From Trichlorobacter lovleyi SZ (GTDB taxonomy: Bacteria > Desulfobacterota > Desulfuromonadia > Geobacterales > Pseudopelobacteraceae), in contig NC_010814.1 of assembly GCF_000020385.1 (NCBI RefSeq), forward strand, positions 1,080,001 to 1,112,000: 32,000 nucleotides of DNA. The letters run 5' to 3'. Shown here piece by piece: positions 2,860 to 21,682 of this stretch; within the stretch, counting starts at the first letter, position 1; each line of letters begins with the position of its first letter. The notes under the pieces were generated by a model, which was given only the letters and a program-made list of their open reading frames with translations, was not told where the DNA came from and did no database searches. Both the position numbers and the translations under genes were made by a program.

Positions 2860-4308
2860 TTACTTCTGCGGCCCGTAGGGGTCTTTCAACTCCTGCTCGG
2901 GCTTGAACATCAGCTTCTTGGCGCCACGGTTGTTGGTGTACTTGGACAGTTCAAGATCAATCTTGACCGGAACATCCACCCCGGCCTTGGTCAGAGCCTG
3001 ACGCAACAGACCATCGGCCTTGCCGGCGTACATGGTGGCATCACCCAGTATCCGCATCGCCTCGGTCGGGTTGTGGAAGCCGATGGAGTTTTCTGCGCCA
3101 AAGAACAGGTTACGGTAGAACCCTTCTTCATAGTAGAACTTGGCCTGGTCGTACATCTTCTGGTCGATCTGCTTGCCGGCGGCCTGCTGCTTGTGGGTCA
3201 TTTCAAACAGCTTGGCAACGGTGGCCAGGGCATAACCGGAGCGGATGTACTGGGAGGCAGCACGATCCTGAATCGTAATGACCTGGTTTTTCAACCATTC
3301 AGAAGACTCGCTGTGGCACTGTTTACAACCCTTGAAGTCGTTTTTGAGCGGGCTCATGATTCGGTGGTCTGAGATTTTCTTGCTGCCCACCTTGGTGTAC
3401 GGCATATGGCAGTCTGCACAGGAAACACCGGCCATCCAGTGTACGCTCTGGTTAGAGTACATCTCAAACTCGGGGTGGCGGATGTAGGCCATCTTGAAGC
3501 CGGTGACGGCCTGGGTCCATTCACCATAGGACTTGTCGCTGCGCATTTTCTTGATGATGTTCTCAATGCTGATCTTGCCCCACTTGCTCTCATCCCATGG
3601 GAAGAAAACGTCCTGCGACTTCATGTTGGCATCTTTGGGGATGGTGTAGGTCACGTGGCACTGGGCGCATACCAGACTGCGCTTGTCCTGATTGGTAAGC
3701 TTGGTCTGGTCAACTCCCATTTTGTCCAGAGCTTTTACAAGGGTAAAGCCTCGTGAAATTTTCAGACCCATATCCTTGTTGTTGTGGCAGTCGATACAGG
3801 CCACACCCATTTCCTGATGCTCTTTTGGGATCTGATTGACCGCATCGGCATATGATTGTGAGAAGTAGGTGACACCCTGCTTCTGAGCCAGTTGCGGTGC
3901 ATAGGGGGTTTTGCAGGTCAGACAGGCGCCACCACCCTTCAGGCGGGAAGGATCAATCTCCTTCTGATCCTTCATCATATAGACGTGGCCGCGTGGCTCG
4001 TTGTACTCAATACCAAAACCCCAGCCGTTGAACAGCAAGGCGATGAAGGGGTATTCAGACAGCTTGTCATAGACCTTGCCGCCGTCGTTGCCTTTTTTGT
4101 ACTTGCTTTTGCCTTCCGGGGTGGGCAGGGCAGTGTCTTTCCAGGTCTGGTATTCTTCAGGGTAATTCTTGCCCCAGACAGCCGGGTCAATCGTTCCGTC
4201 CGGAATCTCGGCAATCTTGGCCTGCTCGGCCTTGGGCGGGGCACAGGCGGTGATTGCGGCCCCGCACAGGGCGGCTGCCACAAGTGGTACCAACAGTTTG
4301 CTTCTCAT
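2860..4308 (-). CDS. nrfA: Pentahaem cytochrome c nitrite reductase NrfA (ammonia-forming)
   Basis: ATG at 4308 is preceded by GAGGAGGAA. It has the active-site CXXCK motif (CLTCK) plus four CXXCH motifs (CIDCH, CAQCH, CADCH, CKQCH). It also has the catalytic-Arg block EPRGH and the distal-His block RHPEFE. An N-terminal signal peptide is present. Confidence 0.93.
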   Translation of the reverse strand: MRSKLLVPLVAAALCGAAITACAPPKAEQAKIAEIPDGTIDPAVWGKNYPEEYQTWKDTALPTPEGKSKYKKGNDGGKVYDKLSEYPFIALLFNGWGFGIEYNEPRGHVYMMKDQKEIDPSRLKGGGACLTCKTPYAPQLAQKQGVTYFSQSYADAVNQIPKEHQEMGVACIDCHNNKDMGLKISRGFTLVKALDKMGVDQTKLTNQDKRSLVCAQCHVTYTIPKDANMKSQDVFFPWDESKWGKISIENIIKKMRSDKSYGEWTQAVTGFKMAYIRHPEFEMYSNQSVHWMAGVSCADCHMPYTKVGSKKISDHRIMSPLKNDFKGCKQCHSESSEWLKNQVITIQDRAASQYIRSGYALATVAKLFEMTHKQQAAGKQIDQKMYDQAKFYYEEGFYRNLFFGAENSIGFHNPTEAMRILGDATMYAGKADGLLRQALTKAGVDVPVKIDLELSKYTNNRGAKKLMFKPEQELKDPYGPQK

Positions 4309-4321
4309 AGGTGATTCCTCC

Positions 4322-4807
4322 TCAGGGGTTTGTTTGTAGTAACGGGTTGGTTTGCAGTGCACCGGTACCGGTATGGGTTACCCGGCGGTGGCAGCTCCAG
4401 CAGTTGCGTGACGTATCCATCTGCGATACCAGCGTTTCGTGGCATCTGATGCAGTTGGCCTTGACCACCTTGGCACCATGTTCAGACAGCGTGATCTTCT
4501 CCGGGACCTTGCCGGAGTAGAAGAACAATACGTCCTTCATACCGTCTATGGATTTCCAGATGTAGTGGCTGGCCAGGTTGTCGTTGGGCAGATGGCAGTC
4601 GACACATTTGAAGCGGCGATGGGCACCGGCATGCATGAAGGCGGTGTGCTGTGCTTCCATGACATGGCAGCTCGCACAGAAATCCGGTGATTCAGACTTG
4701 GCCAGCAGATGCGGCGGCCCCAGTGTCAGATACAGCCCCAACAGCGCACAACAGACTACTGCAATCAGCAGCGCCTGTTTCTGTGTGTAGCTCAGATTCT
4801 TCAGCAT
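4322..4807 (-). CDS. nrfH: Tetrahaem membrane quinol dehydrogenase NrfH (NapC/NirT family)
   Basis: ATG at 4807. It has one N-terminal TM helix and four CXXCH motifs (CASCH, CVDCH, CIRCH, CWSCH). The first is the NrfH-typical CXXCHxM (CASCHVM). It ends 13 nt upstream of nrfA. Confidence 0.88.
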   Translation of the reverse strand: MLKNLSYTQKQALLIAVVCCALLGLYLTLGPPHLLAKSESPDFCASCHVMEAQHTAFMHAGAHRRFKCVDCHLPNDNLASHYIWKSIDGMKDVLFFYSGKVPEKITLSEHGAKVVKANCIRCHETLVSQMDTSRNCWSCHRRVTHTGTGALQTNPLLQTNP

Positions 4808-4840
4808 CCCTTCACCCCCCTTCTGTCGTGGAATCAGGTA

Positions 4841-4879
4841 CAAAAACGCCGCCGGCAGTCTGCTGGACCACCGGCGGCG
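4841..4879 (-). terminator. Intercistronic terminator-like hairpin between hao and nrfH
   Basis: On the minus strand, CGCCGCCGG, a 15-nt loop and CCGGCGGCG form a perfect 9-bp GC stem, followed by UUUUUG. Confidence 0.5.
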
Positions 4880-4892
4880 CTGGTATCACCTG

Positions 4893-6149
4893 CTACTTCT
4901 TGCCGGCTTTTTTCTTCATGTCCTCCGCCATTTCACGGATCTCGGTCAGATCCTTCTTCATCTTGGCGTAACCATACCAGGTGGTGTAGTCAGGGTTCAT
5001 ATGGAACGCCCCCTGGAAGGTCTTCATGCGGTGATCCATGAACATCTCGTACAGGGTCTGTTCGATCTTGGTGTCAACATCGTAGAAGGTCAGCAGATCC
5101 GGGTAGGCAAACGGCTGATCTGCCTTCTTCTTGATGATTCCCTGCTGATACAGGTCGCCTACGATACTGATCGCTTCACTGAACAGTTTGTCTGCCTCTT
5201 TGCCCATCTGGTCAGCATTCTTGAAGTTTTCCTTCACAAAGTTGGGGGAGTGGCACTGCTGGCAGATCGCCACGTACTTGCCCCGCTCCTTATCAAACTC
5301 TTCCTTGGTCAGGCGGGCCACTTTACCTGCCTTGACCACATCCAGACGGCCGGTGGGCTTGCCAGCGGGATCAAGTACACCCATGCCTTTCAAAATAGTG
5401 GCGCGATAGCCCATCCACTCGGCATCGGCCTCTGGCAGGCGAACAGCCAGGAAGCCCCATGCTGACATTACGCGGTGGTTACCGTTGGGCATATGGCAGG
5501 TCTGGCACTTGGGTGCGCGGTTCTTTGCTCCGGGGTTGATGGCGCGGCTGGTCAGGTAGGCGGTTCCATGCTTGGAACCGGACCACATCTCCCACTGGGG
5601 ATGGTCAAACCCCATGTGGCAGGTCTGGCAGGCTTCAGGCTCGTTGGCTTCGGCCTTGGAGAAGGCGTGGCGGGTATGGCAGTTCTGGCAGTCCATGCCG
5701 TACTTGTAGTATTTGCGGGCCTCGGTCTCACGGCCTTTGGCATCAACCAATCCCAATGTGTGGCAGCCGCCGCAGCCTTTCTGGCCGGCCATGAACGCCT
5801 TGGGTTGATGGGGGGAGCGGGGCATTGCATCCAGAGCAACCTGACCAAGCACATGCTTGCCGTCCATATACTGGTTGGCCTGGTCCGGATGGCACTGCTT
5901 GCAGGTGGCGATGGTGGGGAGCTGTGCCTTGGCCACATCCTTCTCGCTGGTGTGATAGGTGCCGTGACAAGCCTCACAGGTCAGGCTTTTAGACATCTTG
6001 CCCCGGTTAAAGTCTTTGACCATCTCCGGCGAGATCTTGGCGTGGCAGGTCTCACAGTTGGACGGCTTGGCCAGTGCCAGTGCCGGCATCAGTGCCAGAC
6101 AGGCAACCATACAGATCAGCATGCTGCTAAACCGTTTCAATGCGCGCAT
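4893..6149 (-). CDS. hao: Octahaem cytochrome c of the hydroxylamine oxidoreductase (HAO) family, short epsilon-Hao-like form
   Basis: ATG at 6149 is preceded by AGGAGG, and a Sec signal peptide (ALALA/KP) is present. It has eight CXXCH motifs. The block CQNCHTRHAFSKAEANEPEACQTCHMGFDHPQWEMWSGSKHG closely follows the conserved HAO-family core as I remember it from Nitrosomonas HAO. It has no C-terminal membrane anchor. Confidence 0.75.
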   Translation of the reverse strand: MRALKRFSSMLICMVACLALMPALALAKPSNCETCHAKISPEMVKDFNRGKMSKSLTCEACHGTYHTSEKDVAKAQLPTIATCKQCHPDQANQYMDGKHVLGQVALDAMPRSPHQPKAFMAGQKGCGGCHTLGLVDAKGRETEARKYYKYGMDCQNCHTRHAFSKAEANEPEACQTCHMGFDHPQWEMWSGSKHGTAYLTSRAINPGAKNRAPKCQTCHMPNGNHRVMSAWGFLAVRLPEADAEWMGYRATILKGMGVLDPAGKPTGRLDVVKAGKVARLTKEEFDKERGKYVAICQQCHSPNFVKENFKNADQMGKEADKLFSEAISIVGDLYQQGIIKKKADQPFAYPDLLTFYDVDTKIEQTLYEMFMDHRMKTFQGAFHMNPDYTTWYGYAKMKKDLTEIREMAEDMKKKAGKK

Positions 6150-6240: not shown

Positions 6241-6335
6241 ATTTAGCAAAATAAAGTGGTAAATTAACGTTTACATGGACTTGTGAGATGTATTGATGCT
6301 TGACATGCTCTGGCTTTAGGCCTAGTTATGTAAAT

Positions 6336-6947
6336 ATGAAATCGCAAAATGTGCTCGAAAAAAAGGTAACACACGTAAGGCAAGCTGAGATTGTGCAGGC
6401 CGCCTTGAGTGTTATCGGCAGACTGGGTGTCAGTGGGCTAACCATCCATGAGGTGGCGCTGTCAGCCGGTATGAGTGAGGCCAACATCTACCGCCATTTC
6501 CGCAACAAGCAGGAGGTGGTCAAGGCGTTGGTAGAGTTCATCGGCGGCCAGGTCACCAGTCGGGCGGCTCAACTGGCCGGTTCAAGTGGCAAGCCGCTGG
6601 ACAAGCTGGAAAAGGTGATCCTGGCCCACACCGAGATGATTGCCAGAAATCCCGGTATACCAAGGCTTTTGTTCTCTGATGGCGGGATTGCCACCGGCGG
6701 CAGGATTGCCCAGATCATGTCCAGCCGGATAGAGAGCTTGCTGGATACCCTTGCAGGTCTGCTTGAGGCGGCTGCTACTGAAGGTGCGGTGCGTGAGGGG
6801 ATCGCTTCCCGCGAGACCGCCGTTACCATTTTGGGGATGATCCAGTTTAGCGTGCTGCGTTGGATCGGCAATCAAACCGAAGGCAAGCTGGTGGATGAAG
6901 TGGCGCTGTTGTGGGGTAATTTCAGGCGGCTTTTGGAGCGTCAGTAA
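6336..6947 (+). CDS. TetR/AcrR-family transcriptional repressor
   Basis: ATG at 6336. The N-terminal TetR HTH reads IVQAALSVIGRLGVSGLTIHEVALSAGMSEANIYRHFRNK. It lies immediately upstream of the efflux genes. Confidence 0.88.
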   Translation: MKSQNVLEKKVTHVRQAEIVQAALSVIGRLGVSGLTIHEVALSAGMSEANIYRHFRNKQEVVKALVEFIGGQVTSRAAQLAGSSGKPLDKLEKVILAHTEMIARNPGIPRLLFSDGGIATGGRIAQIMSSRIESLLDTLAGLLEAAATEGAVREGIASRETAVTILGMIQFSVLRWIGNQTEGKLVDEVALLWGNFRRLLERQ

Positions 6948-6968
6948 AGGGTGCAAATTTTTTTGCGC

Positions 6969-6994
6969 ACAATGTGAATATATATTTACATTGT
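6969..6994. promoter_or_regulatory. Candidate TetR operator, a 26-bp palindrome
   Basis: ACAATGTGAATAT/ATATTTACATTGT matches at 12 of 13 positions per arm. It ends 12 nt upstream of the adaptor gene ATG and overlaps an AT-rich -10-like TATATT. Confidence 0.55.
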
Positions 6995-7005
6995 GGGGGG
7001 CGGCG

Positions 7006-9359: not shown

Positions 9360-9363
9360 CACG

Positions 9364-10071
9364 GTGGCAGGTACCGGTATTCGTATTGAAGGACTGAGGA
9401 AACGCTACGGCAGTGGCGACACGGCGGTTGATGCCTTGCAGGGGGTGGAACTGCAGGTGGCGCCGGGTGAGGTGATCGGGCTGGTGGGGCCATCCGGTTC
9501 CGGCAAGAGCACCCTGCTGAAATGTCTGGGGGCGGTGATCGACCCGACTGCAGGACGGATCGTGCTGGGGGACGAGGTGATCTATGACAACGGCTGGCAG
9601 GTTCGGGATCTGCGTGCCCTTCGTCGCGACCGGATAGGCTTTGTCTTTCAGGCACCCTACCTGATCCCGTTTCTGGATGTGACCGATAATGTAGCCCTGT
9701 TGCCGATGCTGGCCGGTGTGCCGAATCAGGAGGCACGCAAGCGGGCCAGGGAGCTACTGGCCGCCCTGGAGGTGGAACACCGCGCCAAGGCCATGCCTGC
9801 ACAGCTTTCCGGCGGTGAACAGCAGCGAGTAGCCATTGCCCGTGGTCTGATCAACCGTCCCCCGGTTGTTCTGGCAGATGAGCCGACTGCCCCGCTGGAC
9901 AGTCAGCGGGCGCTGGGGGTGATCCGTATTCTCAATGATATGGCACAGCAGTATCAGACAGCGGTTATCGTGGTAACTCACGATGAAAAGATCATCCCTA
10001 CCTTCAAGCGGATCTACCATATCCGGGATGGCGTTACCCATGAAGAGGAGGGCGAGGGGCGGGTAATCTAA
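9364..10071 (+). CDS. ABC transporter ATP-binding protein (DevA/MacB-NBD-like)
   Basis: GTG start. It has Walker A (GPSGSGKST), the ABC signature (LSGGEQQR) and Walker B (VVLADEPT). Confidence 0.92.
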
Positions 10072-10228
10072 GGAAATATGGTTACGACAAACGACTTTAT
10101 CGGGTAACGAGGCGACAACATGACAAAGCGATGTCTGGTGCAAGGGTAAACAAGAAGATGCAGCTTTTTCAATTGTCTCGTTATTACAAATGATATTAGC
10201 GCTGACTGCTTATCTCACCATCTCGATT

Positions 10229-10642: not shown

Positions 10643-10743
10643 ACGTGTCTCCTTTGCCCGCTTTTACAGCATTGTTCCTATGTACCTGCCGGATCGATTC
10701 GTGACGGTTTTGTGATAATGCCATGCCTGCAATGCATATTTCA

Positions 10744-10757: not shown

Positions 10758-10813
10758 GGTCGTGCAATCGGTACTCCGGTATGTTGCGAGGAAAAAGCGA
10801 AGGAGGCATCAAC

Positions 10814-11818
10814 GTGTTACGCATATCAGCCGGGAACATTACCCGTGTCCGCCTGTTGGTGCAGTGGCTGTTTCTGTTCTGGATCATCGGCATCGGCATC
10901 CGCTTTGGCTTGTTTATAGCTGCAGTTGAACAGGGTAATCCGCAGCCGTTCTTTGGCCGGCCAGCCGGTGTTGAGGGCTTTCTGCCGATCGGGGCATTGA
11001 CCAGCCTGAAGCACTGGTTGGCCAGCGGACAGATTCACCCGGTACATCCGGCAGCACTGGTAATCTTTCTGGCAGTTCTGCTGATGAGTCTGCTGGCCAA
11101 GAAGTCATTCTGTTCCTGGATCTGCCCGGTGGGTACGCTGTCCGAGGTTGTGTATAAACTCGGGGTACGATTGCTGGGGCGTAATTTTAAGGTCTGGAGG
11201 CCGCTTGATCTGCTGCTGCAGGGGATCAAGTATCTGGTGCTGTTCTTCTTCGTGAAGATAATTCTGCTTGATATGCCTGCCTTTGCCGTTGCCGCCTTTC
11301 TGGATACCCCTTATTGGGCAGCCAGTGATGCCAAGATGCTGCATTTTTTTACCCAGATTTCTGCCACAACCGTTACGGTGCTGACGGTACTGACACTGCT
11401 GTCTCTGGTCTATCGTAATGTCTGGTGCCGCTACCTGTGTCCCTACGGTGCCCTGCTGGGTGTCCTGAGCCTGCTGAGTCCGTTCAAGATCCGGCGTAAC
11501 CCGCACACCTGTACTGATTGTCGCCAGTGCAGTCAGGCCTGCCCGGCAGGCATCAGCGTGCACAGCACAACCAAGGTTGTCTCGCCTGAATGCACCGGCT
11601 GCCTGACCTGCGTAGCTGCCTGTCCGCATCAGGAAGTGCTGGTCATGCAGCCATCGTTCTGGAAACGTCCACTGCCGGTCTGGCTTTTTCCGGCAGTTGC
11701 CCTGAGCCTGTTTATGGTCTCAATCGGGGTTGGTATGGCAAGCGGTCACTGGCAGACGGTGTTGACCTACGACGATTACCGCCAACTGTTGCCGATGCTG
11801 CCCTATCTGAGTCATTGA
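10814..11818 (+). CDS. Membrane-bound polyferredoxin of the NapH/MauN/NosR-C family (orphan NapH-like)
   Basis: It has several TM helices and two CxxxCP motifs (CSWICP, CRYLCP). Two C-terminal 4Fe-4S motifs follow (CTDCRQCSQACP, CTGCLTCVAACP). I prefer GTG 10814 with its AGGAGG RBS; the in-frame ATG at 10781 would fall inside the predicted -10 element. Confidence 0.8.
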   Translation: MLRISAGNITRVRLLVQWLFLFWIIGIGIRFGLFIAAVEQGNPQPFFGRPAGVEGFLPIGALTSLKHWLASGQIHPVHPAALVIFLAVLLMSLLAKKSFCSWICPVGTLSEVVYKLGVRLLGRNFKVWRPLDLLLQGIKYLVLFFFVKIILLDMPAFAVAAFLDTPYWAASDAKMLHFFTQISATTVTVLTVLTLLSLVYRNVWCRYLCPYGALLGVLSLLSPFKIRRNPHTCTDCRQCSQACPAGISVHSTTKVVSPECTGCLTCVAACPHQEVLVMQPSFWKRPLPVWLFPAVALSLFMVSIGVGMASGHWQTVLTYDDYRQLLPMLPYLSH

Positions 11819-11911
11819 GGATGGTTGACGCGGGCGACGGTTGGACGGCGGTCAGGATGGTACCCTGCAGAAAATTCAAAATTACTGCAGCACTGCTGCG
11901 CGTTCAATTGT

Positions 11912-12193
11912 TTACATGCCTTGCGTCTGAGGAGCGCCGTGACATGTACGACAGGCTTCTTCAGTCGCTTTGCGTTTAAGCAGGCTGTCTTTGTCTTTGG
12001 GTTGCCCTTTGCCCATCAGTTTTGCTCCCACTTTGTGGCAGCCAAAACATCCCTGTCCCTGTAGTGCCTTATGCATCTTGACCATAGCCGGGTTCTTGCT
12101 GTGGCAGACGGTACATTCAAAGGCTGCCACAGGCGGTGCAAGCAGCAGCATCAGTACCAGCAACATGCTTCTTGTGGTTTGTCTGTTTTTCAT
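11912..12193 (-). CDS. Small periplasmic trihaem cytochrome c
   Basis: ATG at 12193. It has a signal peptide (MKNRQTTRSMLLVLMLLLAPPVAA) and three CXXCH motifs (CTVCH, CFGCH, CRTCH) in about 70 mature residues. No Shine-Dalgarno sequence precedes the ATG. Confidence 0.8.
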   Translation of the reverse strand: MKNRQTTRSMLLVLMLLLAPPVAAFECTVCHSKNPAMVKMHKALQGQGCFGCHKVGAKLMGKGQPKDKDSLLKRKATEEACRTCHGAPQTQGM

Positions 12194-12227
12194 GCCGTTT
12201 GCATAGCACAACAGGAAGGGAATGGTG

Positions 12228-12241
12228 TTGACCGAAGTCAA
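12228..12241. promoter_or_regulatory. CRP/FNR-family box TTGACCGAAGTCAA upstream of the trihaem cytochrome gene
   Basis: Perfect 5-4-5 palindrome whose centre is exactly 41.5 nt from the A of the ATG. A minus-strand extended -10 (TGcTATGCA, 12200-12208) ends 6 nt before the ATG. Confidence 0.6.
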
Positions 12242-12878: not shown

Positions 12879-12888
12879 CGACTCCTCC

Positions 12889-13570: not shown

Positions 13571-14962
13571 ATGCAACAGCTGACAACAATCTACCGGGAT
13601 ATTCTGGAAAGTATGGCGGAAGGGATCATCTTTGCCGATGCTGATGATCGGCTGACCTTTATTAACCAGACTGCCGAGGAGATCAGGGGGATCAAGGCCG
13701 AAAATTTTATCGGCCGAACCATCTTCTCGGTGCATTCTCCCAACTCCGCCAAGCGTATCAAAGAGCTGTTGCAGAAGCTGCGTGATGGCTCCATCAAGCA
13801 GGCCCGGCGGGTAATTGAGGTGAAAGGGCGCTATTTTGAGAACAGTTACTATCCCGTGAGCAGTCCTGACGGGGGATATCTGGGAACATTGCTGATCAGC
13901 CGTGATGTTACTGAACGGCAGCAGTTGCAGCATGAAAACCAGTCGCTCAAACAGCGGATGGCCTGCGGCAGTTTCGGCGGGTTTGTCAGTATCAGCTCAT
14001 CCATGCTGCCGGTATTTCAGACCATTGGCGCTGTGGCGGGACTGGAGTCAACGGTGCTGATCACCGGTGAGAGCGGTACCGGTAAAGAGCTGGTGGCTGC
14101 GGCCATACACCGTAACAGCGCCCGCAATGAGCGGGCAATGGTAACGGTCAACTGTGCGGCGCTGCCGGAACATCTGGTGGAATCCGAACTGTTTGGTTAC
14201 CAGCGCGGTGCCTTTACCGGCGCAGTAGGCAACCACCGCGGTAAATTTGAACAGGCGGACAAAAGCACGATCTTTCTGGATGAGGTCGGAGACCTGCCGG
14301 CCAATGCCCAGGCCAAGCTGCTGCGGGTGCTGCAGGAGCGGACCGTCAGCCGGCTGGGATCTGAAAAGGATATCCGGGTGGATGTGCGGATTATTGCTGC
14401 AACCAATCGCAACCTGCAGCAGATGGTGGCGGATGGTCTGTTCAGGGAGGATCTCTATTACCGCCTGAATGTGATTTCATTGCCGGTGCCCCCGCTGCGG
14501 GAGCGGCGTGAGGATATCCTGCCCATGGCGGAGTTCTTTCTGAAAAGATTCAGTGAACGGATGGAACGTCCGCAGCTGGGGATTTGTGAGGCAACCCGGT
14601 CGGTGCTGCTTTCCTACGACTATCCCGGTAATGTGCGCGAGCTGGAACATGGGATTGAGCGTGCCGTTGCGCTCTGTCCCGGCTCGTGCATCTCTCCGGC
14701 AGACCTGCCTGAACAGTTTGTAGCGGCCCGCAGCTCCGGGGGGCCGGACTGGCAACACCCCCTGTCAGTACGGGCCGGAGATCAGTATCGTCCGGATGAT
14801 GCCGCTCCTGCCACCCTGGCCAATGCCCGTGAAGAATCGGAGCGTCGACTGATCCTTGACGCCCTGGTCAGGACCGGCGGCCGCAAGGCAGAGGCGGCAA
14901 AACTGCTGAATATCTCACGTAAAACCCTCTGGGAAAAATTGAAGCTGATTAACCAAACGTAA
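13571..14962 (+). CDS. Sigma-54-dependent transcriptional activator with an N-terminal PAS domain (PAS-AAA+-Fis HTH)
   Basis: It has Walker A (GESGTGKE), the sigma-54 contact loop GAFTGA and ESELFGY. The C-terminal Fis-type HTH reads [18 protein letters not shown]. There is no receiver domain. Confidence 0.92.
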
Positions 14963-15080: not shown

Positions 15081-15096
15081 TGGCACAGCTCCTGTA
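15081..15096 (+). promoter_or_regulatory. Weak candidate sigma-54 -24/-12 promoter for the nap operon
   Basis: TGGCAC-AGCTC-CTGTA has a perfect -24 element and correct spacing. The -12 element reads TGT instead of TGC. Confidence 0.3.
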
Positions 15097-15229
15097 TACG
15101 CTGTCTGTACTGCAGGGGCATGGTGCGTATTTTTTGTGCATGGCCAGCTTGCGGATTTAACGTTCGGTGCTACCCTTGAATCAGCCAGAACTGGCGCAAA
15201 AATTGAGGGGCCGATAGGGTGAGGTGGGT

Positions 15230-15499
15230 ATGCCTGTTTCAGGTGTAGTACTGAGTTGCAGACCGGGAAAAGAGACCCTGGTCGCAGAACTGGCCAGGCT
15301 GGTGCCAGGCGTTGAGGTACACGGGGCACTGCCTGACGGGCAGGTCATTGCGGTGATTGAGGCTGCTTCGGTCCAGGCCGAGGTGGATATCGCCTCACAG
15401 CTTGAGCAGCTTGATGCGGTTATCAGTGTGCAGGTGGCGTACCATAACTTTGAAGATGTAACCCAAGAAGGAGGCGCAGATGGAACTGACGAGGCGTGA
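15230..15499 (+). CDS. napD: NapD chaperone for NapA maturation
   Basis: About 90 aa, with the NapD pattern VSGVVL...VPGVEVHG...GQVIAVIEA...ISVQVAYHNFED. An alternative GTG start is at 15224. It overlaps the napA start by 20 nt. Confidence 0.82.
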   Translation: MPVSGVVLSCRPGKETLVAELARLVPGVEVHGALPDGQVIAVIEAASVQAEVDIASQLEQLDAVISVQVAYHNFEDVTQEGGADGTDEA

Positions 15500-17792
15500 T
15501 TTCCTGAAGGCCAGTGCGGCAGCCGCCGCCTTTGCAGCAGCCGGGGCGCAGGCGCTTGCCCCCCGCCTGGCTTCTGCAGCCGATGACAAAGGGATCAAGT
15601 GGGGCAAGGCGCCCTGCCGTTACTGCGGCGTTGGCTGCTGTGTGCTGGTGGGGGTCAAGGATGGCAAGATCGTTGCCACCAAGGGTGACCCGGCCGGTCC
15701 GGTCAATAAGGGGCTCAACTGCATCAAGGGCTACTTTCTCTCCAAGGCACTCTACGGCAAGGATCGTCTGACCCATCCGCTGATCCGCAAGGGCAACAAG
15801 ATGGTCAAGGCCAGCTGGGATGAGGCCTTGAACCTGATTGCGTCCAAGTACAAGGAGGCGATTGCCAAGAACGGCCCTGACTCGGTGGCGATCTACGGCT
15901 CCGGGCAGTGGACCGTGTTTGAAGGCTACACGGCAGTCAAGCTGTTCAAGGGGGGGATCGGCACCAACAATGTGGAGCCCAATGCCCGGCTCTGTATGGC
16001 CTCGGCCGTGGTCGGCTTCATGAATACCTTTGGTTCAGACGAGCCGATGGGCTGTTACGATGACCTTGACCTGGGCGATACCTATATCCTCTGGGGGGCC
16101 AACATGGCAGAGGCCCACCCGGTACTGTTTTCACGTCTGATTGATAACAAGCTGAAGAACAAGAAGGTTAAAATCATTGATATTGCCACCCGCCGGACCC
16201 GTACCACCCAGATGGCGGATGAATATATCCCGATGCATCCCCAGGGGGATCTGGCTGCCCTGAATGCCATTGCCCACGTCATCCTGCGGGACAAGCTGTA
16301 TGATGAGTCCTTTGTCAAACAGCATGTCACCTTCAAGCGGGGTACCGAGAACCAGCCCTATGGTCTGAAGGATAAGGAAAACCCCAAAGAGGAACCCAAG
16401 CCGCTGACCTTTGATGAATACAAGCAGCTGATGAAGCAGTTTACCCCGGAGTGGGCTGAAAAGCTGTCCGGGATACCGGCCAAAAAGATTGAGCATCTGG
16501 CCCAGCTCTATACCGACAAGAGCCGCAAGGTCAATTCGCTCTGGACCATGGGGGTCAATCAGCACGTACGTGGGGTCTGGGTCAATAACCTGATCTATAA
16601 TCTGCACCTCTTAACCGGCAAGATCTGCAAGCCGGGCGAAAATCCACTCTCCCTGACCGGCCAGCCTTCCGCCTGCGGTACCGCCCGTGAGGTGGGCACT
16701 TTTGCCCATCGCCTGCCTGCCGACATGGTGGTGATGAACGAGGCCCATCGCAAAAAGACCGCCGAGATCTGGGGCGTTGATCCCAAAAAGATCTCGCCCA
16801 AGGTCGGACTGCATACCATGGAGATGTACCGCGCCATTGACCGTGGTGAGCTGAAGTGCCTCTGGATCCAGTGCACCAACCCGTTCCAGTCGATCCCGAA
16901 TCTCTCCCGTTACCGCAAGGCTGCCCAGGCCCGCAAGGCCTTCATTGTGGTCTCCGACATCTATCCCACCAGGTCAACGGAAGTGGCAGACGTGATCCTG
17001 CCCTCTGCCTCCTGGGTTGAGAAAGAGGGGGTCTTCGGCAACACCGAGCGCCGCACCCAGCACTGGTTCAAAATGATCGAACCTCCTGGCGAGGCAAAGG
17101 AAGATACCTGGCAATTGATTGAGCTGGCCAAACGGCTTGGTCATGGCAATCTCTTTCCTTACAGCCAGAAAAACTTCCACAAAGAGATGTGGGAGGAATA
17201 CCGCAAGTTTACCATTGGCACCGGTAAGGATCTGGCCCCCTATGAAACCTACTTTAAAGTGCGCGGGCTGCGTTGGCCGGTCAAGTCCAACGGTCAGGAA
17301 ACCCGCTGGCGTTATACCGATGCTGATGATCCTTACGTCAAGAAGGGGGAAGGGGTTAAATTCTACAAGGCGCCGGGTAACAAGGCCACAATCTGGTTCC
17401 GCCCTTATGAGCCGCCTGCAGAGAGCCCGAATAGCGAGTATCCGTTCTGGTACTGCACCGGCCGGCTGCTGGAACATTGGCACACCGCCACCATGACCGG
17501 CCGGGTACCTGAGTTGAAACGGGCCATGCCGGGGGCAACCCTGGAGATGCATCCGGAAGATGCCGCCCGCTTGGGGATCAAGAACCGCGACAAGGTCAAG
17601 GTCAGTTCCCGCCGGGGATCGGTGGTGCTGACGGCCGAGATCAATGGCCGCGGCAAGCCGGAGAAGGGCAATGTCTTCACCACCTTCTTTGATGAAACCA
17701 AGCTGATCAATGACCTCTGTATTGATGCCTTTGATCCGCTTTCCAAGGAGCCTGACTTCAAGAAGTGTGCGGTGAAGGTCGAGAAGGCCTAA
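15480..17792 (+). CDS. napA: Periplasmic nitrate reductase catalytic subunit NapA (Mo-bisMGD, 4Fe-4S)
   Basis: It has a twin-arginine signal (TRRDFLKASAAAAA) and the N-terminal cluster motif CRYCGVGCCVLV...GDPAGPVNKGLNCIKGYF, typical of NapA. Length is 770 aa. Confidence 0.95.
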   Translation: MELTRRDFLKASAAAAAFAAAGAQALAPRLASAADDKGIKWGKAPCRYCGVGCCVLVGVKDGKIVATKGDPAGPVNKGLNCIKGYFLSKALYGKDRLTHPLIRKGNKMVKASWDEALNLIASKYKEAIAKNGPDSVAIYGSGQWTVFEGYTAVKLFKGGIGTNNVEPNARLCMASAVVGFMNTFGSDEPMGCYDDLDLGDTYILWGANMAEAHPVLFSRLIDNKLKNKKVKIIDIATRRTRTTQMADEYIPMHPQGDLAALNAIAHVILRDKLYDESFVKQHVTFKRGTENQPYGLKDKENPKEEPKPLTFDEYKQLMKQFTPEWAEKLSGIPAKKIEHLAQLYTDKSRKVNSLWTMGVNQHVRGVWVNNLIYNLHLLTGKICKPGENPLSLTGQPSACGTAREVGTFAHRLPADMVVMNEAHRKKTAEIWGVDPKKISPKVGLHTMEMYRAIDRGELKCLWIQCTNPFQSIPNLSRYRKAAQARKAFIVVSDIYPTRSTEVADVILPSASWVEKEGVFGNTERRTQHWFKMIEPPGEAKEDTWQLIELAKRLGHGNLFPYSQKNFHKEMWEEYRKFTIGTGKDLAPYETYFKVRGLRWPVKSNGQETRWRYTDADDPYVKKGEGVKFYKAPGNKATIWFRPYEPPAESPNSEYPFWYCTGRLLEHWHTATMTGRVPELKRAMPGATLEMHPEDAARLGIKNRDKVKVSSRRGSVVLTAEINGRGKPEKGNVFTTFFDETKLINDLCIDAFDPLSKEPDFKKCAVKVEKA

Positions 17793-17801
17793 CCCCCTCA
17801 G

Positions 17802-17862: not shown

Positions 17863-17885
17863 CCGGGAGGGGTGAAAAGGTGTGT

Positions 17886-18548
17886 ATGGATTCTGACGCA
17901 AAAAATACCGGCATCTCGCGCCGCCTGTTTCTGAAGGGCAGTGTCCTGACCCCCCTGGCCCTTGCCTTGGGCAGTGCCGCCATCTCCGCGGTCTATCTGC
18001 GGCCTGCCCAGGCACGGGGCTTCTACCTGCGACCGCCGGGGGCGATTGAGGAAGCGCGTTTTCTGGCTGCCTGCGTCAAATGCGGCAAATGTGCCCAGGC
18101 CTGTCCGTACAAATCAATTGTCATGGCTGGTGGTGAGGCCGGTGCCGGGATCGGCACACCGCACATCATCCCCCGCGAGAACCCCTGTTACCTCTGTCCG
18201 GATCTGCCCTGTGTCAAGGCCTGTCCCTCCGGTGCGCTGGATAAACAACTGACCGAGGTGGAAAAGGTGCGGATGGGAACAGCGGTAATCGTTGACCGGG
18301 AGGGCTGTCTCTCAATCCGCGGCTTACGCTGCGAGGTCTGTTACCGCCAGTGTCCCCTGATCGACAAGGCGATTACCATTGAGAACCGGCATAATATCCG
18401 TACCGGTGAGCATACGATCATGGAACCGGTGATTCATAAGGACAAATGTGTGGGCTGCGGCATCTGCGAAAAGGTCTGTGTCCGGGAAAAACCGGTCATT
18501 GCCGTCCAGCAGCGGGTTACGGAACAGAAGGACTTTTATGAATTTTAA
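17886..18548 (+). CDS. napG: NapG periplasmic four-cluster ferredoxin
   Basis: It has a Tat signal (SRRLFLKGS) and four Cys clusters (CVKCGKCAQACP, CYLCPDLPCVKACP, CEVCYRQCP, CVGCGICEKVC). An alternative GTG start is at 17880. Confidence 0.88.
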   Translation: MDSDAKNTGISRRLFLKGSVLTPLALALGSAAISAVYLRPAQARGFYLRPPGAIEEARFLAACVKCGKCAQACPYKSIVMAGGEAGAGIGTPHIIPRENPCYLCPDLPCVKACPSGALDKQLTEVEKVRMGTAVIVDREGCLSIRGLRCEVCYRQCPLIDKAITIENRHNIRTGEHTIMEPVIHKDKCVGCGICEKVCVREKPVIAVQQRVTEQKDFYEF

Positions 18549-19356
18549 GCGCTGGGGCATAGCCCGTTGTGCGGTGCAACTGCTGATGATCGCCTTGCTG
18601 GCCTCCCCCTTGGCCGGCCTGGCGATCTTCACGGGTAACCTGGCAGCTGCAGAGCTGCTGGGGCTTCCCCTGGCAGACCCGCTGGCCTTTCTGCAGGCGC
18701 TGCTGGGAGGGCGGGTCTTTGTACTCTCTTATCTGCTCAGCGCCCTGCTGGTGGTCGGCTTCTATTTTCTGCTGGGTGGCCGCACCTTCTGTGGCTGGGT
18801 CTGCCCGGTGGGGCTGGTCACCGAGCTTGCGGACCGGCTGCGCAGAAAACTGGGAACCGGTACACAAACGCTGCCGCTTACCCTCAACCGCTGGAGTCTC
18901 GCACTGGTGTTGCTGGTGGTGATGGCCACCGGGGTTCCGCTGTTTGAGCTGCTCTCACCGATCGGCATTATCAGCCGGGCAATTGTGTTTGCTGCGCTGT
19001 TGCCGTTATTGCTGGTGGCAGCCATCCTGCTGATGGAACTGCTGGTGGCCAGACGGGTCTGGTGCCGTTCGCTCTGCCCGCTGGGCGGGTTCTACAGTCT
19101 GCTGGCAGCCTTCAGCCCGCTACGGATCGGGTTTGTTGCTGATCGCTGCACCCATTGTAATGACTGCCTCAAGGCCTGCCCGGTGGAAGAGGTGCTGCAG
19201 CCCTCTCTGGAACTGAATCATCCCCAGGTGGTTGCCGGAGACTGTACCCGCTGTATGGCCTGTCTGGATGCCTGTCCTGCAAAGGCTCTCAAAATTTCAA
19301 TCGGTTATCAACCGGTATCACGAGACGTAACAGACCCCCTCAAAGGAGGCCGATGA
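18538..19356 (+). CDS. napH: NapH membrane quinol-oxidising FeS subunit
   Basis: ATG at 18538 overlaps the napG end by 11 nt. It has TM helices, two CxxxCP motifs (CGWVCP, CRSLCP) and two C-terminal 4Fe-4S motifs (CTHCNDCLKACP, CTRCMACLDACP). Confidence 0.88.
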   Translation: MNFKRWGIARCAVQLLMIALLASPLAGLAIFTGNLAAAELLGLPLADPLAFLQALLGGRVFVLSYLLSALLVVGFYFLLGGRTFCGWVCPVGLVTELADRLRRKLGTGTQTLPLTLNRWSLALVLLVVMATGVPLFELLSPIGIISRAIVFAALLPLLLVAAILLMELLVARRVWCRSLCPLGGFYSLLAAFSPLRIGFVADRCTHCNDCLKACPVEEVLQPSLELNHPQVVAGDCTRCMACLDACPAKALKISIGYQPVSRDVTDPLKGGR

Positions 19357-19658
19357 TGAAACGTTCTGTGCAGCTTGTATCCCTGATCAGTTGTCTGCTG
19401 CTGCTGGCCCTGGTTCCTGTCCATGCCGACGAGCAGCCTGAGCCCAATCTTGCCGCTGATGCCGTTAAGGCGGAGAAACATCCGCCGGTCATTCCCCATG
19501 CGGTGCAGGATGATGCGGATGGCGCCTCGTGCAACGGTTGTCATACCGGCAGTTTCAAGGCACCCCATCCGGATCGCCTGAACTGTACCCAGTGCCATGT
19601 GCCGGGTGAGGTCAAAAAACCGGCGAAAAAAGGTGGTAAGAAGGCGGTTAAGAAGTGA
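19353..19658 (+). CDS. napB: NapB dihaem cytochrome c small subunit
   Basis: It has a signal peptide and two CXXCH motifs (CNGCH, CTQCH) in the NapB context PPVIPH...CNGCH...HPDRLNCTQCHV. It overlaps napH by ATGA. Confidence 0.82.
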   Translation: MMKRSVQLVSLISCLLLLALVPVHADEQPEPNLAADAVKAEKHPPVIPHAVQDDADGASCNGCHTGSFKAPHPDRLNCTQCHVPGEVKKPAKKGGKKAVKK

Positions 19659-20008
19659 CCATCTCCCGCAAGGAATTTTTCCGGCAGGGGATCTTCTCGC
19701 TGGGCGATACCCTGCTGAAGGCCACCGGCATACTGCAGCAACCTGCTGCGGGCGCCGGGGACGATGCCGTTGAGCTGCCCCACGGAGATCAACCGATGGT
19801 GGCACTGCCCCGCAATGAACGGTGTCTGGCAAAAAACTGTGGCTGTTTCAGCTGTGTGGAAAAATGTGAACAGCAGGCAATTGTGGTGGTGATGGGCGAG
19901 GGGATCAGAATTGATGCAACCCGCTGCAACGGCTGCGGCAGCTGTCTGTATGTCTGTCCGGTCACCCCCAAGGCGATTACGCTGCGGGTACGTGCTGAAT
20001 TGAATTGA
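19655..20008 (+). CDS. Small two-cluster ferredoxin, NapF-like
   Basis: GTG start overlaps the napB stop (GTGA). A vestigial Tat-like N-terminus (SRKEFFRQG) is present. Cys motifs are CGCFSCVEKC and CNGCGSCLYVCP. Confidence 0.6.
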   Translation: MTISRKEFFRQGIFSLGDTLLKATGILQQPAAGAGDDAVELPHGDQPMVALPRNERCLAKNCGCFSCVEKCEQQAIVVVMGEGIRIDATRCNGCGSCLYVCPVTPKAITLRVRAELN

Positions 20009-20056
20009 GTTCAGGTGAATAGTTTCACCAACATCCAGAAGAGAGGAGAATACGGT

Positions 20057-21682
20057 ATGCTGAAACAGAGACTGGCAGTTGCAGCAAGTATTGTCGGGCT
20101 TGGAGCCCTGTTGGCGATTCCTTCGCTGGCAGCACCCAAGGCCAAACCGGCAGCAAAACCTGCCAACGACGGACGTGAGCAGTGCTACATGTGTCACACG
20201 GAGGTAAAGGCGCTCAAGGAGGCATCCAAACATGCCGCACTGGCCTGTTCGGTCTGCCATGACAAGACCAAAGAGCACCTTGCCAATCCCGGCCCGGATA
20301 CCAAACCGGTAACCAAGCTGGACCCGGCGGTTTGTGGCTCCTGTCACAAGAATCAGTATCAGAGCTTCTTTACCCCGCACTACCCCGAGGGCGGGTCCCG
20401 TAAGGAAAAGGGCGTGCCCACCGGCCGTTCACCAATGCAGGATAAGCTGCTGGCCGGTCACGGCTTTACCTTTGAACATGCCGAGCCCCGCGGCCATGCC
20501 TTTATGGTGGTGGACCAGTTTGCAGTAGATCGTTTCCAGGGTGGACGCTACCAGTTTAAGGGTGGCTGGAAGAACTACGACAAGGTTGGCAAGACCTGGG
20601 ATGTGCTGGAAGACAAAGGTGCCAGCGCCAAACTGACCGAGACTGCCATGGCTGGTAACCCGACCTGTATCCAGTGCAAGACCTCCGACCTGATCCTGAA
20701 GTGGAAGTATCTTGGGGAAAAGGGCGGCAAGTTTGACCGTACCTCCAACGTGAATGATGTCATGAAGGATGTCCATAATCCGGTCGGCTGTATTGAGTGC
20801 CACGACCCCCACGGCACTCAGCCCCGCGTGATCCGTGATGCCCTGATTGCAGCCATTGACAAGGACCCGGCCAAGAATATCTTTGCCAAAAACGGCAAGA
20901 CCGACCTGAAGGTGGTTTCCTTCCGTGACGGCTTCCGCAAGATCGGCGTGATGGAGAAGACCGATTCCCGCATGATGTGTGCCCAGTGCCATGTTGAGTA
21001 CAATTGTAACCCCGGTACCCAGTGGAGCGACGGCAAGCCGGTGACCTTTGCCTCGGACCGTACCAACCACTTCCCGCTCAAGAATGCCAAAGAGATCCTG
21101 GCCCACTACAAGCAGCTTGATTTCTTTGACTTCAAGCATGCCGTAACCGGTGCCCGCCTGATCAAGCTGCAGCACCCCGAGGCAGAGACCTATGCCGGCT
21201 CCGTGCATGACAAGGCCGGTGTGCAGTGCCATCAATGCCATATGCCCAAGCTGAAGGGCAAAGACGGCAAGCCGTACTCGACCCACGGTGTGGTCAAGCC
21301 GATCAATATGGCCAAAGAGTCCTGCATCAGCTGCCATAAGGATTCCAGTGTCGAGAAGGCCAAGTGGCAGATCGACACCATCCGTAACTACACCAAGGGC
21401 AAGATGCGCAAGGCCGAATACTGGCTGGGCCAGCTGATTGACACCTATCTGGTGGCTTCCCGTGCCGGTGTCGCCCCTGCCGTACTGGATCAGGCCCGGG
21501 CCAAGCATGAAGAGGCCCATGTGCTGTGGGAATACTGGACCGCTGAGAACTCAGACGGTTTCCATAACCCTGCTCTGGCCCGTGAAACCCTGACCGGCTC
21601 CATTGCTGCCTCCAAGGCCGGGGTCAAGATCCTGAATGATGCCATGGCAGTGGCAAACAAGAAGGAAGAACCGAAAAAGTAG
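20057..21682 (+). CDS. Octahaem cytochrome c nitrite reductase (ONR, TvNiR-like)
   Basis: ATG at 20057 is preceded by GAGAGGAG, and a Sec signal is present. Three N-terminal CXXCH motifs are followed by CXXCK (CIQCK) and four more CXXCH motifs. NrfA-like catalytic blocks EPRGH, CHVEYNC and LQHPEAE are present. Confidence 0.85.
   Translation: MLKQRLAVAASIVGLGALLAIPSLAAPKAKPAAKPANDGREQCYMCHTEVKALKEASKHAALACSVCHDKTKEHLANPGPDTKPVTKLDPAVCGSCHKNQYQSFFTPHYPEGGSRKEKGVPTGRSPMQDKLLAGHGFTFEHAEPRGHAFMVVDQFAVDRFQGGRYQFKGGWKNYDKVGKTWDVLEDKGASAKLTETAMAGNPTCIQCKTSDLILKWKYLGEKGGKFDRTSNVNDVMKDVHNPVGCIECHDPHGTQPRVIRDALIAAIDKDPAKNIFAKNGKTDLKVVSFRDGFRKIGVMEKTDSRMMCAQCHVEYNCNPGTQWSDGKPVTFASDRTNHFPLKNAKEILAHYKQLDFFDFKHAVTGARLIKLQHPEAETYAGSVHDKAGVQCHQCHMPKLKGKDGKPYSTHGVVKPINMAKESCISCHKDSSVEKAKWQIDTIRNYTKGKMRKAEYWLGQLIDTYLVASRAGVAPAVLDQARAKHEEAHVLWEYWTAENSDGFHNPALARETLTGSIAASKAGVKILNDAMAVANKKEEPKK

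Follow-up and report, generated by a model that had tools for sequence, protein, structure and literature searches.

The window (the whole 32,000-nucleotide stretch of DNA analyzed here) was found to carry the DNRA locus Glov_1041 to Glov_1061 of Trichlorobacter (Geobacter) lovleyi, from strain SZ or one almost identical to it. Its content is explained, with a probability of roughly 80%, by two nitrate-induced respiratory modules, a Tyr-less HAO-like reductase and attachment of haem to CXXCK motifs in trans. The locus was identified on the basis of an NrfA with 100% identity to PDB 6V0A (482/482 residues) and a gene order and number agreeing with locus tags Glov_1041–1061 (PMC11972089). It represents mostly known biology with one modest new annotation, that of Glov_1044. 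NrfA-1/NrfH, Nap and ONR ("NrfA-3") of T. lovleyi were described, and found to be nitrate-induced, in 2025, when the redundancy was counted as NrfA-1, ONR and NrfA-2, a second copy (Glov_0211) outside the window (PMC11972089). Glov_1044 has been published only as a "conserved hypothetical", and its reading as a Tyr-less HAO-like reductase encoded immediately upstream of nrfHA is unreported in the searchable literature.

The first module (hao-like, nrfH and nrfA-1) is located on the minus strand, beside a gene for a chemotaxis protein:

721..2706, minus strand: Glov_1041, NIT-domain methyl-accepting chemotaxis protein (PF08376 1.4e-57, with HAMP and MCPsignal)
2798..2841, minus strand: terminator-like hairpin 3' of nrfA (20-bp stem with 11 GC pairs, then a T-rich tail)
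2860..4308, minus strand: nrfA-1, Glov_1042, pentahaem cytochrome c nitrite reductase (PF02335 4e-163)
4322..4807, minus strand: nrfH, Glov_1043, tetrahaem NapC/NrfH-type quinol dehydrogenase (four CXXCH)
4845..4881, minus strand: GC-rich hairpin, terminator- or attenuator-like, between hao and nrfH (16-bp stem, then U5)
4893..6149, minus strand: Glov_1044, HAO-family octahaem cytochrome c (PF13447 84.1 bits, cut-off 21.9)

The second module, napDAGHB(F)-onr, is encoded on the plus strand. The ~9 kb between the two modules contain unrelated genes for TetR, MacAB-type efflux, hemerythrin, Bcp and rubrerythrin-like proteins. From this interval onward the features are:

10781..11818, plus strand: Glov_1050, NapH/NosR/YccM-like polytopic Fe-S protein (two Fer4_5 and a dicluster domain; match to the NapH subfamily model under the cut-off)
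11912..12241, minus strand: Glov_1051, small trihaem c7/c3-type cytochrome (three CXXCH, Pfam c3/c7 domains)
13571..14962, plus strand: Glov_1054, PAS-sigma54 activator (PAS_4, Sigma54_activat and HTH_8 domains)
15224..15499, plus strand: napD (PF03927 3.4e-20)
15480..17792, plus strand: napA (NF010055 1065 bits, cut-off 904)
17880..18548, plus strand: napG (TIGR00397 185 bits, cut-off 178.85)
18538..19356, plus strand: napH (NF007013 242 bits, cut-off 234; the ORF opens at 18448 and the likely start is ATG 18538)
19353..19658, plus strand: dihaem NapB-like cytochrome (two CXXCH; PF03892 25.8 bits, marginal)
19655..20008, plus strand: Glov_1060, NapF-like 4Fe-4S protein (Fer4 domains), labeled 'NapF?' in PMC11972089
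20057..21682, plus strand: onr, Glov_1061, octahaem nitrite reductase of TvNiR/TaNiR type (CIQCK as fourth motif)

NrfA-1 has 482 aa from its likely start (the longest ORF extends to 4362), with CLTCK at 129 followed by CXXCH at 171, 214, 297, and 328. NrfH scores 145.9 bits against TIGR03153 (cut-off 134.2) and has 161 aa, as it is also called in flanking locus L003, where the chemotaxis protein, whose NIT domain is nitrate/nitrite-sensing, is called as 661 aa. ONR has 541 aa when read from the ATG that follows GAGGAG (555 aa if the ORF is opened at GTG 20015), with haem motifs at 43, 64, 93, 204 (CIQCK), 245, 308, 391, and 423. Glov_1044 (418 aa) has eight CXXCH, at 32, 58, 83, 126, 154, 174, 215, and 296. 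The initial annotation had placed all three enzyme types within 19 kb, next to a Nap system, and this is upheld: the nrfA and onr stops are 18,823 bp apart, and onr is immediately preceded by the nap genes. The three genes are intact at the coordinates first assigned to them, with no loss-of-function lesion found in their products, and the 418-aa and 541-aa proteins stay inside the HAO family (PF13447, HAO-only PDB matches) and the ONR family (TvNiR, 8RV0), respectively.

Published expression data (log2FC, nitrate vs. fumarate; PMC11972089) give values of 4.54 for NrfA-1, 4.63 for NrfH, 4.13 for Glov_1044 and 5.5–5.8 for the Nap and ONR genes, with 5.6, 4.57, and 2.39 for Glov_1041, Glov_1050, and Glov_1051, respectively. 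The redundancy earlier remarked upon, all of these genes being nitrate-induced, is already covered by the published count. On the basis of family and homologues, NrfH would oxidize menaquinol and pass electrons to NrfA-1, a Ca-independent pentahaem enzyme predicted to reduce nitrite to ammonium. By analogy with T. ammonificans, NapGH would draw menaquinol electrons for NapAB (nitrate to nitrite) and may also supply the octahaem ONR (nitrite to ammonium). The idea that the enzymes differ in electron donor thus finds partial support, NrfA-1 being paired with the quinol dehydrogenase NrfH and ONR lying behind NapGH, both under nitrate induction.

Glov_1044 is a periplasmic HAO-family octahaem protein in which Trp replaces the cross-linking Tyr. 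Its significant PDB matches, by sequence and Foldseek, are HAO-family enzymes only, although its AlphaFold model is poor (pLDDT 65) and makes the fold evidence weak on its own. In the alignment with KsHOX all eight haem motifs are in register, and NeHAO Tyr467 (cross-linking) pairs with W391, with a conserved His eight residues earlier. The Trp suggests that Glov_1044 reduces nitrite, NO and/or hydroxylamine rather than acting as an oxidase, with electrons probably coming from NrfH or small soluble cytochromes. An oxidative hydroxylamine or hydrazine dehydrogenase is highly improbable. Some homologues do carry the JGI label "hydroxylamine dehydrogenase", and the top NCBIfam match of Glov_1044 is the HDH model, but the score of 74.8 bits is far below that model's cut-off of 900. 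Tyr392, beside W391, is invariant in the close family, and in a single HMMER alignment the insertion of a gap brings it opposite the cross-link Tyr of KsHOX; in a set of 47 divergent family members, however, position 392 is Tyr in only 17, with Trp at 391 in 26. The host is moreover an anaerobic nitrate ammonifier which induces the gene during nitrate reduction.

The best sequence and fold match of Glov_1044 is kustc0458 (HAOr; identity ~22%), which reduces nitrite, NO, and NH2OH, is incapable of NH2OH oxidation and yields NO from nitrite (PMC8042395). The earlier proposal of nitrite-to-ammonium chemistry for all three enzymes is consequently not established for this one. Glov_1044 could itself be an NO-forming nitrite reductase like this closest solved relative, and not an ammonifying or detoxifying enzyme, a reading which we regard as unlikely. 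It would accord with the presence of hcp beside the family gene in some relatives and with family members at 59–62% identity in Geomonas species, studied for DNRA-derived N2O; an mBio 2024 paper credits Nar or NrfA with NO by inference and does not consider a Glov_1044-type protein. By extension, NO from Glov_1044 would pass to Hcp and contribute to the N2O of DNRA Geobacteraceae. Against this, the identity to kustc0458 is only ~22%, enzymes of the HAO family show catalytic promiscuity in vitro, a kustc0457-like partner is absent, and the epsilon-Hao enzymes, also Tyr-less, are said to make ammonium.

Co-transcription of hao with nrfHA is not assured, because what looks like a strong terminator hairpin separates hao from nrfH (RNA fold of 4800–4900, minus strand: -43.4 kcal/mol, z = -3.16). 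Together with the ~9 kb of unrelated genes, this hairpin favors an incidental three-way clustering, in which hao, nrfHA, and nap-onr would form two or three independent transcription units, neighbors by chance on a chromosome with many N-oxide genes, and the three enzymes would have no functional coupling. The wider families point the same way: nrfH and nrfA are both absent nearby in 76 of 80 genomes with HAO-like family members, so NrfH is not the general electron donor of this very widespread family, whose linkage to nrfHA is limited to the lovleyi lineage, and ONR is apart from nrfHA in 41/43 informative loci. Nevertheless, we consider incidental clustering somewhat unlikely. All units are co-induced by nitrate, and the ~35 nt from the hairpin to the nrfH start leave no space for a separate promoter, so that nrfHA transcripts begin within hao or upstream. 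In L011, from a relative whose Hao is 82% identical, the block of NIT-MCP, hao, nrfH, nrfA, and a yccM-like gene is kept together, the first adjoining hao and the last, of Glov_1050 type, adjoining nrfA; in Geobacter sp. UBA6802 hcp sits between hao and nrfH, and in L155/L156 nap-onr-nrfH-nrfA are contiguous. Elsewhere a Glov_1050-type gene is near Hao in 8/80 loci, napA is upstream of onr in 13/31 informative ONR loci, and a PAS-sigma54 activator gene is 5' of nap-onr in several related loci. Hcp and Crp/Fnr-type genes occur repeatedly near members of the Glov_1044 family, and these neighbors, with NIT-MCP and nrfHA, are counted as tying the HAO-like gene to N-oxide metabolism.

The window was also said to hold no CXXCK haem lyase gene, which is factually correct. 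Every sizeable window ORF was compared with Pfam/NCBIfam, giving no match to the ResB, CcsA/CcmF/NrfE, CcmH or NrfG families, and a six-frame scan found no WWD motif in the window or flanking loci L001 and L003, while the same regex detected a CcsA-type ORF in L171 as positive control. Neither the window nor the ~7–10 kb past either end contained a haem-lyase gene of System I or System II. To our knowledge, a cis-encoded CXXCK lyase exists only as NrfEFG (enterobacteria) and NrfI (Wolinella). The absence was over-read, however: it is normal for the group and not anomalous, because a CcsA-type (WWD-domain) gene lies within 10 kb in only 1/80 related ONR loci and because G. sulfurreducens and G. 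metallireducens each have, at a distance from nrfA, four ResB/ResC pairs (PMC2700814). Haem attachment at both CXXCK sites would occur in trans, Geobacteraceae probably relying on System II and on several pairs of ResB/ResC genes that lie away from the locus, as counted in other Geobacter species; one pair may be CXXCK-specialized, or a general synthase may accept CXXCK. With no lyase homologue at the locus, any specialized synthase is therefore encoded elsewhere. That CXXCK is served in Geobacterales by the housekeeping synthase of System II, with no dedicated paralogue, is conceivable, though the odds lean against it. A lyase gene is lacking in cis here and in 79/80 ONR loci, no cytochrome-maturation gene is among the 200 nitrate-regulated genes, and S. 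oneidensis, which has no cis-encoded CXXCK lyase, handles this motif through CcmF and CcmI (PMC12285233). On the other hand, one of the four Geobacter pairs could be a constitutive CXXCK specialist, and the general synthase CcsA2 of Wolinella does not perform the task of NrfI (PMC12285233).

Compared with known systems, NrfA-1 is the same protein as the G. lovleyi NrfA of PDB 6V0A, with the CXXCK active-site motif and adjoining nrfH. The window NrfA and ONR share this motif with the substrates of NrfEFG (E. coli) and NrfI (Wolinella), of which no homologue occurs in the window or flanks. The second module resembles the Nap-TaNiR module known from T. ammonificans (PMC11972089, PMC12142623) in its gene order, napDAGHB-onr, and in the 81% identity (494 aligned positions, 1.4e-293) of ONR to PDB 8RV0, which is probably TaNiR; T. 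lovleyi, however, retains NrfHA, whereas T. ammonificans is without pentahaem NrfA (PMC11972089). TvNiR of Thioalkalivibrio (515 bits, 1.9e-153) has its catalytic residues Lys188, Arg131, Tyr303, Cys305, and His361 all kept in ONR.

Kuenenia stuttgartiensis HAOr (kustc0458, PDB 6H5L) is likewise an HAO-family octahaem protein with eight motifs in register, Trp for the cross-linking Tyr and the conserved His eight residues before. Glov_1044 differs in being ~100 residues shorter, with little sequence N-terminal to haem 1, in having no counterpart of the dihaem partner kustc0457, and in adjoining nrfHA in a DNRA bacterium, HAOr being from an anammox bacterium. Epsilon-Hao of the Campylobacterota is also a Tyr-less HAO-like reductase of nitrate/nitrite-reducing anaerobes with Trp at the Tyr position, but, compared by description, its residue eight positions ahead of the Trp is Met, where the Glov_1044 family has a near-invariant His that is also found in HAO, HOX, and kustc0458. 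A link of epsilon-Hao with NrfH/NapC-type quinol dehydrogenases and Hcp has been proposed (the reverse-HURM idea; Haase et al., 2017, per PMC8940962).

The window corresponds to Glov_1041–Glov_1061 of T. lovleyi SZ, as established by the identity of its NrfA and by the gene order, which agrees one to one with the locus tags. The main open reading frames (ORFs) were translated and scanned against Pfam and NCBIfam, and the resulting map, to which a hairpin has been added, is as follows.

Features of the window (coordinates, strand, description)
721–2706, minus: methyl-accepting chemotaxis protein (MCP) whose NIT domain senses nitrate/nitrite, Glov_1041 (PF08376, 1.4e-57)
2860–4308, minus: nrfA (Glov_1042, NrfA-1)
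4322–4807, minus: nrfH (Glov_1043)
4845–4881, minus: terminator-like hairpin, a 16-bp GC-rich stem followed by U5, in the hao-nrfH intergenic gap
4893–6149, minus: hao (Glov_1044), 418-aa HAO-like protein
6300–10071, mixed strands: TetR regulator and MacAB-type efflux system
between the modules, mixed strands: hemerythrin, trihaem cytochrome, rubrerythrin-like protein and Bcp peroxiredoxin
10781–11818, plus: NapH/NosR/YccM-like polytopic Fe-S membrane protein (Glov_1050)
13571–14962, plus: PAS-sigma54 activator
up to onr, plus: napD, napA, napG, napH, a dihaem napB-like gene and a napF-like gene, in that order
20057–21682, plus: onr (Glov_1061), 541-aa octahaem protein
remainder of the window: PAS-GGDEF-EAL protein and housekeeping genes

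The initial annotation had assigned three of these products to the pentahaem NrfA, the octahaem nitrite reductase (ONR) and the HAO families, and all three assignments were borne out by haem motifs, PDB matches and the Pfam profiles PF13447 and PF02335. The haem motifs agree exactly with those it gave, no loss-of-function lesion (frameshift or missing motif) was found in the three proteins, and by HMM the 418-aa and 541-aa proteins fall inside the HAO and ONR groups (PF13447 for the former, PF02335 and Cytochrom_c3_2 for the latter). It is the standard view that NrfA, ONR and HAO are evolutionarily related (PMC9250108).

In a family profile alignment, haem motifs 1–8 of the HAO-like protein are in register with those of KsHOX (4N4J) and Brocadia HOX (6T5E), and with these eight CXXCH motifs and a PF13447 score of 84.1 bits (gathering cut-off 21.9) Glov_1044 is placed in the HAO family. 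The significant PDB relatives are exclusively HAO-family proteins, namely Kuenenia kustc0458, KsHOX, Brocadia HOX, HDH, Nitrosomonas HAO and Ignicoccus IhOCC. Exactly eight haem motifs are present in 41 of 46 representatives of the HAO-like family. An AlphaFold2 model built from a 30-sequence alignment was poor (pLDDT 65, below 50 in the haem core) and lends weak support; with Foldseek it gave nine matches at E ≤ 1e-4, all to HAO-family structures and with TM-scores of only 0.40–0.49, the next match having E > 2.

The cross-linking tyrosine of Nitrosomonas HAO (NeHAO Tyr467, in the motif ggwtYteg) aligns with W391 of the HAO-like protein, eight residues past a conserved His, with the caveat that one HMMER alignment pairs the neighbouring Y392 with the KsHOX tyrosine by way of an opened gap. 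In a set of 47 divergent representatives of the family, Trp occupies position 391 in 26 and His383, at −8, is kept in 46, while Y392 is Tyr in just 17. A Trp also occupies the cross-link position in the Kuenenia reductase kustc0458. Membership of the oxidative HAO/HOX/HDH subgroup was rejected, as W391 stands at the place of the P460-forming Tyr, and the HDH equivalog model reached 74.8 bits, its cut-off being 900. Since the protein lacks this Tyr, Glov_1044 reads, from its residues, as a Tyr-less and hence reductive HAO-like enzyme. The epsilon-Hao proteins were weighed as an alternative placement; they are described in PMC8940962 as having a Trp at the Tyr position together with a conserved Met at −8. 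Glov_1044 shares the Trp, but has His383 instead of Met at −8, and was therefore filed as a separate Tyr-less clade apart from epsilon-Hao. No Campylobacterota name occurs among the ten named representative clusters of the HAO-like family.

The family itself is very large, with at least 7019 matches at E ≤ 1e-10 and 1133 clusters when grouped at 50% identity. The best 120 matches all share at least 64% identity and are mostly 405–435 aa in length, and at 58% identity or above the family is present in at least 594 species-level genomes. Among the matches listed are members of Desulfobacterota, Acidobacteriota, Krumholzibacteriia, Fibrobacteraceae, Aquificota, KSB1, Geomonas and Thermosulfurimonas.

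An adjoining nrfH-nrfA pair was found beside hao in only two of 80 species-level loci, with nrfA lying ~6 kb off in a third. In Geobacter sp. UBA6802 the Hao is 98% identical to that of the window and nrfH-nrfA adjoins it, with a 542-aa hcp inserted between hao and nrfH (locus L012, 10687–12315) to give the order hao-hcp-nrfH-nrfA. In the metagenome-assembled genome SKS1.bin79 (locus L011; Hao 82% identical) the whole block of NIT-MCP, hao, nrfH, nrfA and yccM-like gene is repeated. Elsewhere the HAO-like gene is usually solitary. The recurrent neighbours over the 80 loci are sigma54 regulators, Crp/Fnr-type regulators, YccM-like proteins and Hcp, the most frequent neighbour family occurring in at most 12 loci; Hcp is encoded near the HAO-like gene in six of the 80 and in locus L010. 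NrfH as a general partner of the family was rejected on these counts, being absent from 76 of the 80 loci, with no neighbour exceeding 12. In our reading, the lovleyi lineage recruited the HAO-like gene to nrfHA as an add-on, and this gene is functionally tied to the handling of nitrite, NO or hydroxylamine. NrfH may plausibly serve as electron donor of the HAO-like protein.

The region of the hao-nrfH hairpin folds at −43.4 kcal/mol (z = −3.2). The distance from hairpin to nrfH start is just ~35 nt, so that nrfHA transcripts must begin within hao or upstream of it. Such a structure suggests attenuation or transcript processing within the cluster, and it probably acts by attenuation.

The window NrfA-1, with its motif set of CLTCK129 and four CXXCH, is matched by PF02335 at 4e-163 over profile positions 1–427 of 438, i.e., full-length, and agrees at all 482 residues (100% identity) with PDB 6V0A, named as Geobacter lovleyi NrfA (PMC12285233; PMC9250108). 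An NrfH-type quinol dehydrogenase (TIGR03153 above cut-off) adjoins it across an intergenic gap of 13 nt. On the basis of (i) motif set, (ii) identity to a characterised NrfA and (iii) the neighbouring NrfH, its place in the pentahaem NrfA family is clear. The end of the NrfA-1 signal peptide (residues 1–22; 4243–4308, minus strand) reads ...AAITAC and fits the lipobox I-T-A-C, so that the enzyme might carry a lipid anchor and not be soluble.

The ONR has eight haem motifs, of which the fourth is a CXXCK (CIQCK), and consists of a trihaem extension (Cytochrom_c3_2 at the N-terminus) and an NrfA-like core (PF02335 over residues 198–548). Its match to the octahaem nitrite reductase of PDB 8RV0 (1.4e-293) covers 494 positions, of which 81% are identical, and the two proteins share their motif pattern, CIQCK included; Thioalkalivibrio TvNiR is matched at 1.9e-153. 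On alignment to 2ZO5, the TvNiR residues Lys188 (proximal), Arg131, Tyr303, Cys305 and His361 correspond to K208, R159, Y315, C317 and H373 of the ONR (541-aa numbering), the TvNiR chain numbering being consistent in that the CXXCK Lys falls at 188. Motif layout and catalytic residues thus identify the protein as an ONR of the TvNiR type. Of the 31 ONR loci that reach far enough upstream, 13 have a napA gene upstream of onr in the same orientation. In two metagenomic relatives (L155, 1351–5048; L156, 6934–13821) the order nap-onr-nrfH-nrfA is contiguous, ONR and NrfHA being directly adjacent there whereas they are ~14 kb apart in the window, which indicates that the association recurs in other arrangements.

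The NIT-MCP gene Glov_1041 next to nrfA is among the nitrate-induced genes (log2FC 5.6), and such a gene is also found upstream of hao-nrfHA in SKS1.bin79. Glov_1050 (log2FC 4.57) lies outside the nap operon, recurs beside nrfA in the same SKS1.bin79 locus and lies close to the HAO-like gene in eight of the 80 family loci; its product may offer electrons another, quinol-linked way in. The interval 6300–13362 between the respiratory modules, with its TetR/MacAB-type efflux, hemerythrin, rubrerythrin-like and Bcp genes, resembles a stress-defence set. Among the nitrate-induced genes covered, Glov_1050 and Glov_1051 were the only ones found from it. No sigma54 −24/−12 promoter within three mismatches was found upstream of hao, napD, onr or six other genes. 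Upstream of napD, the sequence TGGCAC-N5-CTGTA (15081–15096, plus strand) is an imperfect −24/−12 element (GG-N10-GT); it neighbours the gene of the PAS-sigma54 activator, which is slightly repressed on nitrate (log2FC −1.14). Consensus scans of the window for sigma70 promoters and terminators gave counts not above those of shuffled sequence, and no Rfam families were found in the window.

The initial annotation had also remarked that no dedicated haem lyase gene for the CXXCK sites accompanies these enzymes. Among the window ORFs no member of the ResB, CcsA/CcmF/NrfE, CcmH or NrfG families was detected with Pfam or NCBIfam, and a six-frame scan of the window and of two loci extending ~7 kb upstream and ~10 kb downstream of it found no WWD motif; as a positive control, the same regular expression detected a genuine CcsA-type ORF in another locus (L171). 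A dedicated lyase in cis, whether NrfEFG or NrfI/CcsBA, was accordingly rejected beside both nrfA and onr. The absence, confirmed for the window and its flanks, is expected: over 80 metagenomic loci with close ONR relatives (865 kb in total), a CcsA-type ORF lies within 10 kb of onr in only one, so that absence in cis is the rule for this clade and not a peculiarity of the window. That sole CcsA/ResC-type (WWD-domain) ORF (L171, 16123–16974, minus strand) is cut by the contig end and is located 4.5 kb downstream, on the opposite strand, of the most distant ONR (~64% identity). No cytochrome-maturation annotation occurs among the 200 nitrate-regulated T. lovleyi genes. S. oneidensis does without a dedicated lyase (PMC12285233). 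The genomes of G. sulfurreducens and G. metallireducens each encode four ResB/ResC pairs and an extra ResC-like gene; these genes adjoin those of other cytochromes and have no assigned specificity (PMC2700814). The question is a general one, of the System II synthase that acts on CXXCK in organisms other than Wolinella; the window itself holds no answer, and T. lovleyi, with three CXXCK proteins, would be a sensible choice for addressing it.

Much of the locus has been described by Tabares et al. (ISME J 2025; PMC11972089), who reported NrfA-1 (Glov_1042) with NrfH (Glov_1043), the nap cluster (Glov_1055–1060) and the ONR as "NrfA-3" (Glov_1061), with a second pentahaem enzyme, NrfA-2, elsewhere in the genome. 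According to the same study, the three nitrite reductases make T. lovleyi unusual, and all three are induced together with nap on nitrate vs. fumarate. The redundancy of nitrite reductases, which the initial annotation had singled out, is thus real and already published, as are the modules with different electron inputs, and most of the locus finding is already known. Glov_1044 appears there only in the expression table, as a "conserved hypothetical protein" (log2FC 4.13); it is never discussed, and neither "hydroxylamine" nor "Hao" occurs in the main text. Its locus tag was found in no main text of the literature searched, and a 2026 review of T. lovleyi mentions neither hydroxylamine nor octahaem proteins. 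What is new, judging from sequence comparison, is that this nitrate-induced "hypothetical" protein would be a Tyr-less HAO-family reductase heading the nrfHA cluster and belonging to a very widespread, uncharacterised clade.

A more novel reading, to which a probability of about 0.3 is given, is that Glov_1044 belongs to a large, highly conserved and biochemically uncharacterised clade of Tyr-less HAO-like octahaem reductases, its gene having been placed before nrfHA in the T. lovleyi lineage. It could be a fourth periplasmic N-oxide reductase drawing on NrfH, possibly an NO-forming or a hydroxylamine/NO-scavenging step which governs nitrite toxicity and N2O release in the DNRA of Geobacterales. 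In soils and wastewater, Geobacterales of the T. lovleyi kind are prominent as nitrate ammonifiers, and nitrite toxicity and N2O release are traits limiting or characterising their DNRA. Recognition of Glov_1044 provides a concrete candidate for knockout and assay.

A nitrate-induced HAO-like enzyme beside nrfHA was considered in none of the literature searched. Published models of the locus omit Glov_1044, credit T. lovleyi with three nitrite reductases and trace NO and N2O formation in the family back to Nar or NrfA together with Hcp. The nap-onr arrangement has been likened to the Nap-TaNiR module of T. ammonificans (PMC11972089; PMC12142623). For the HAO-like protein the closest relative of solved structure is Kustc0458 (HAOr), which converts nitrite to NO and also reduces NO and hydroxylamine, and oxidises neither hydroxylamine nor hydrazine (PMC8042395).
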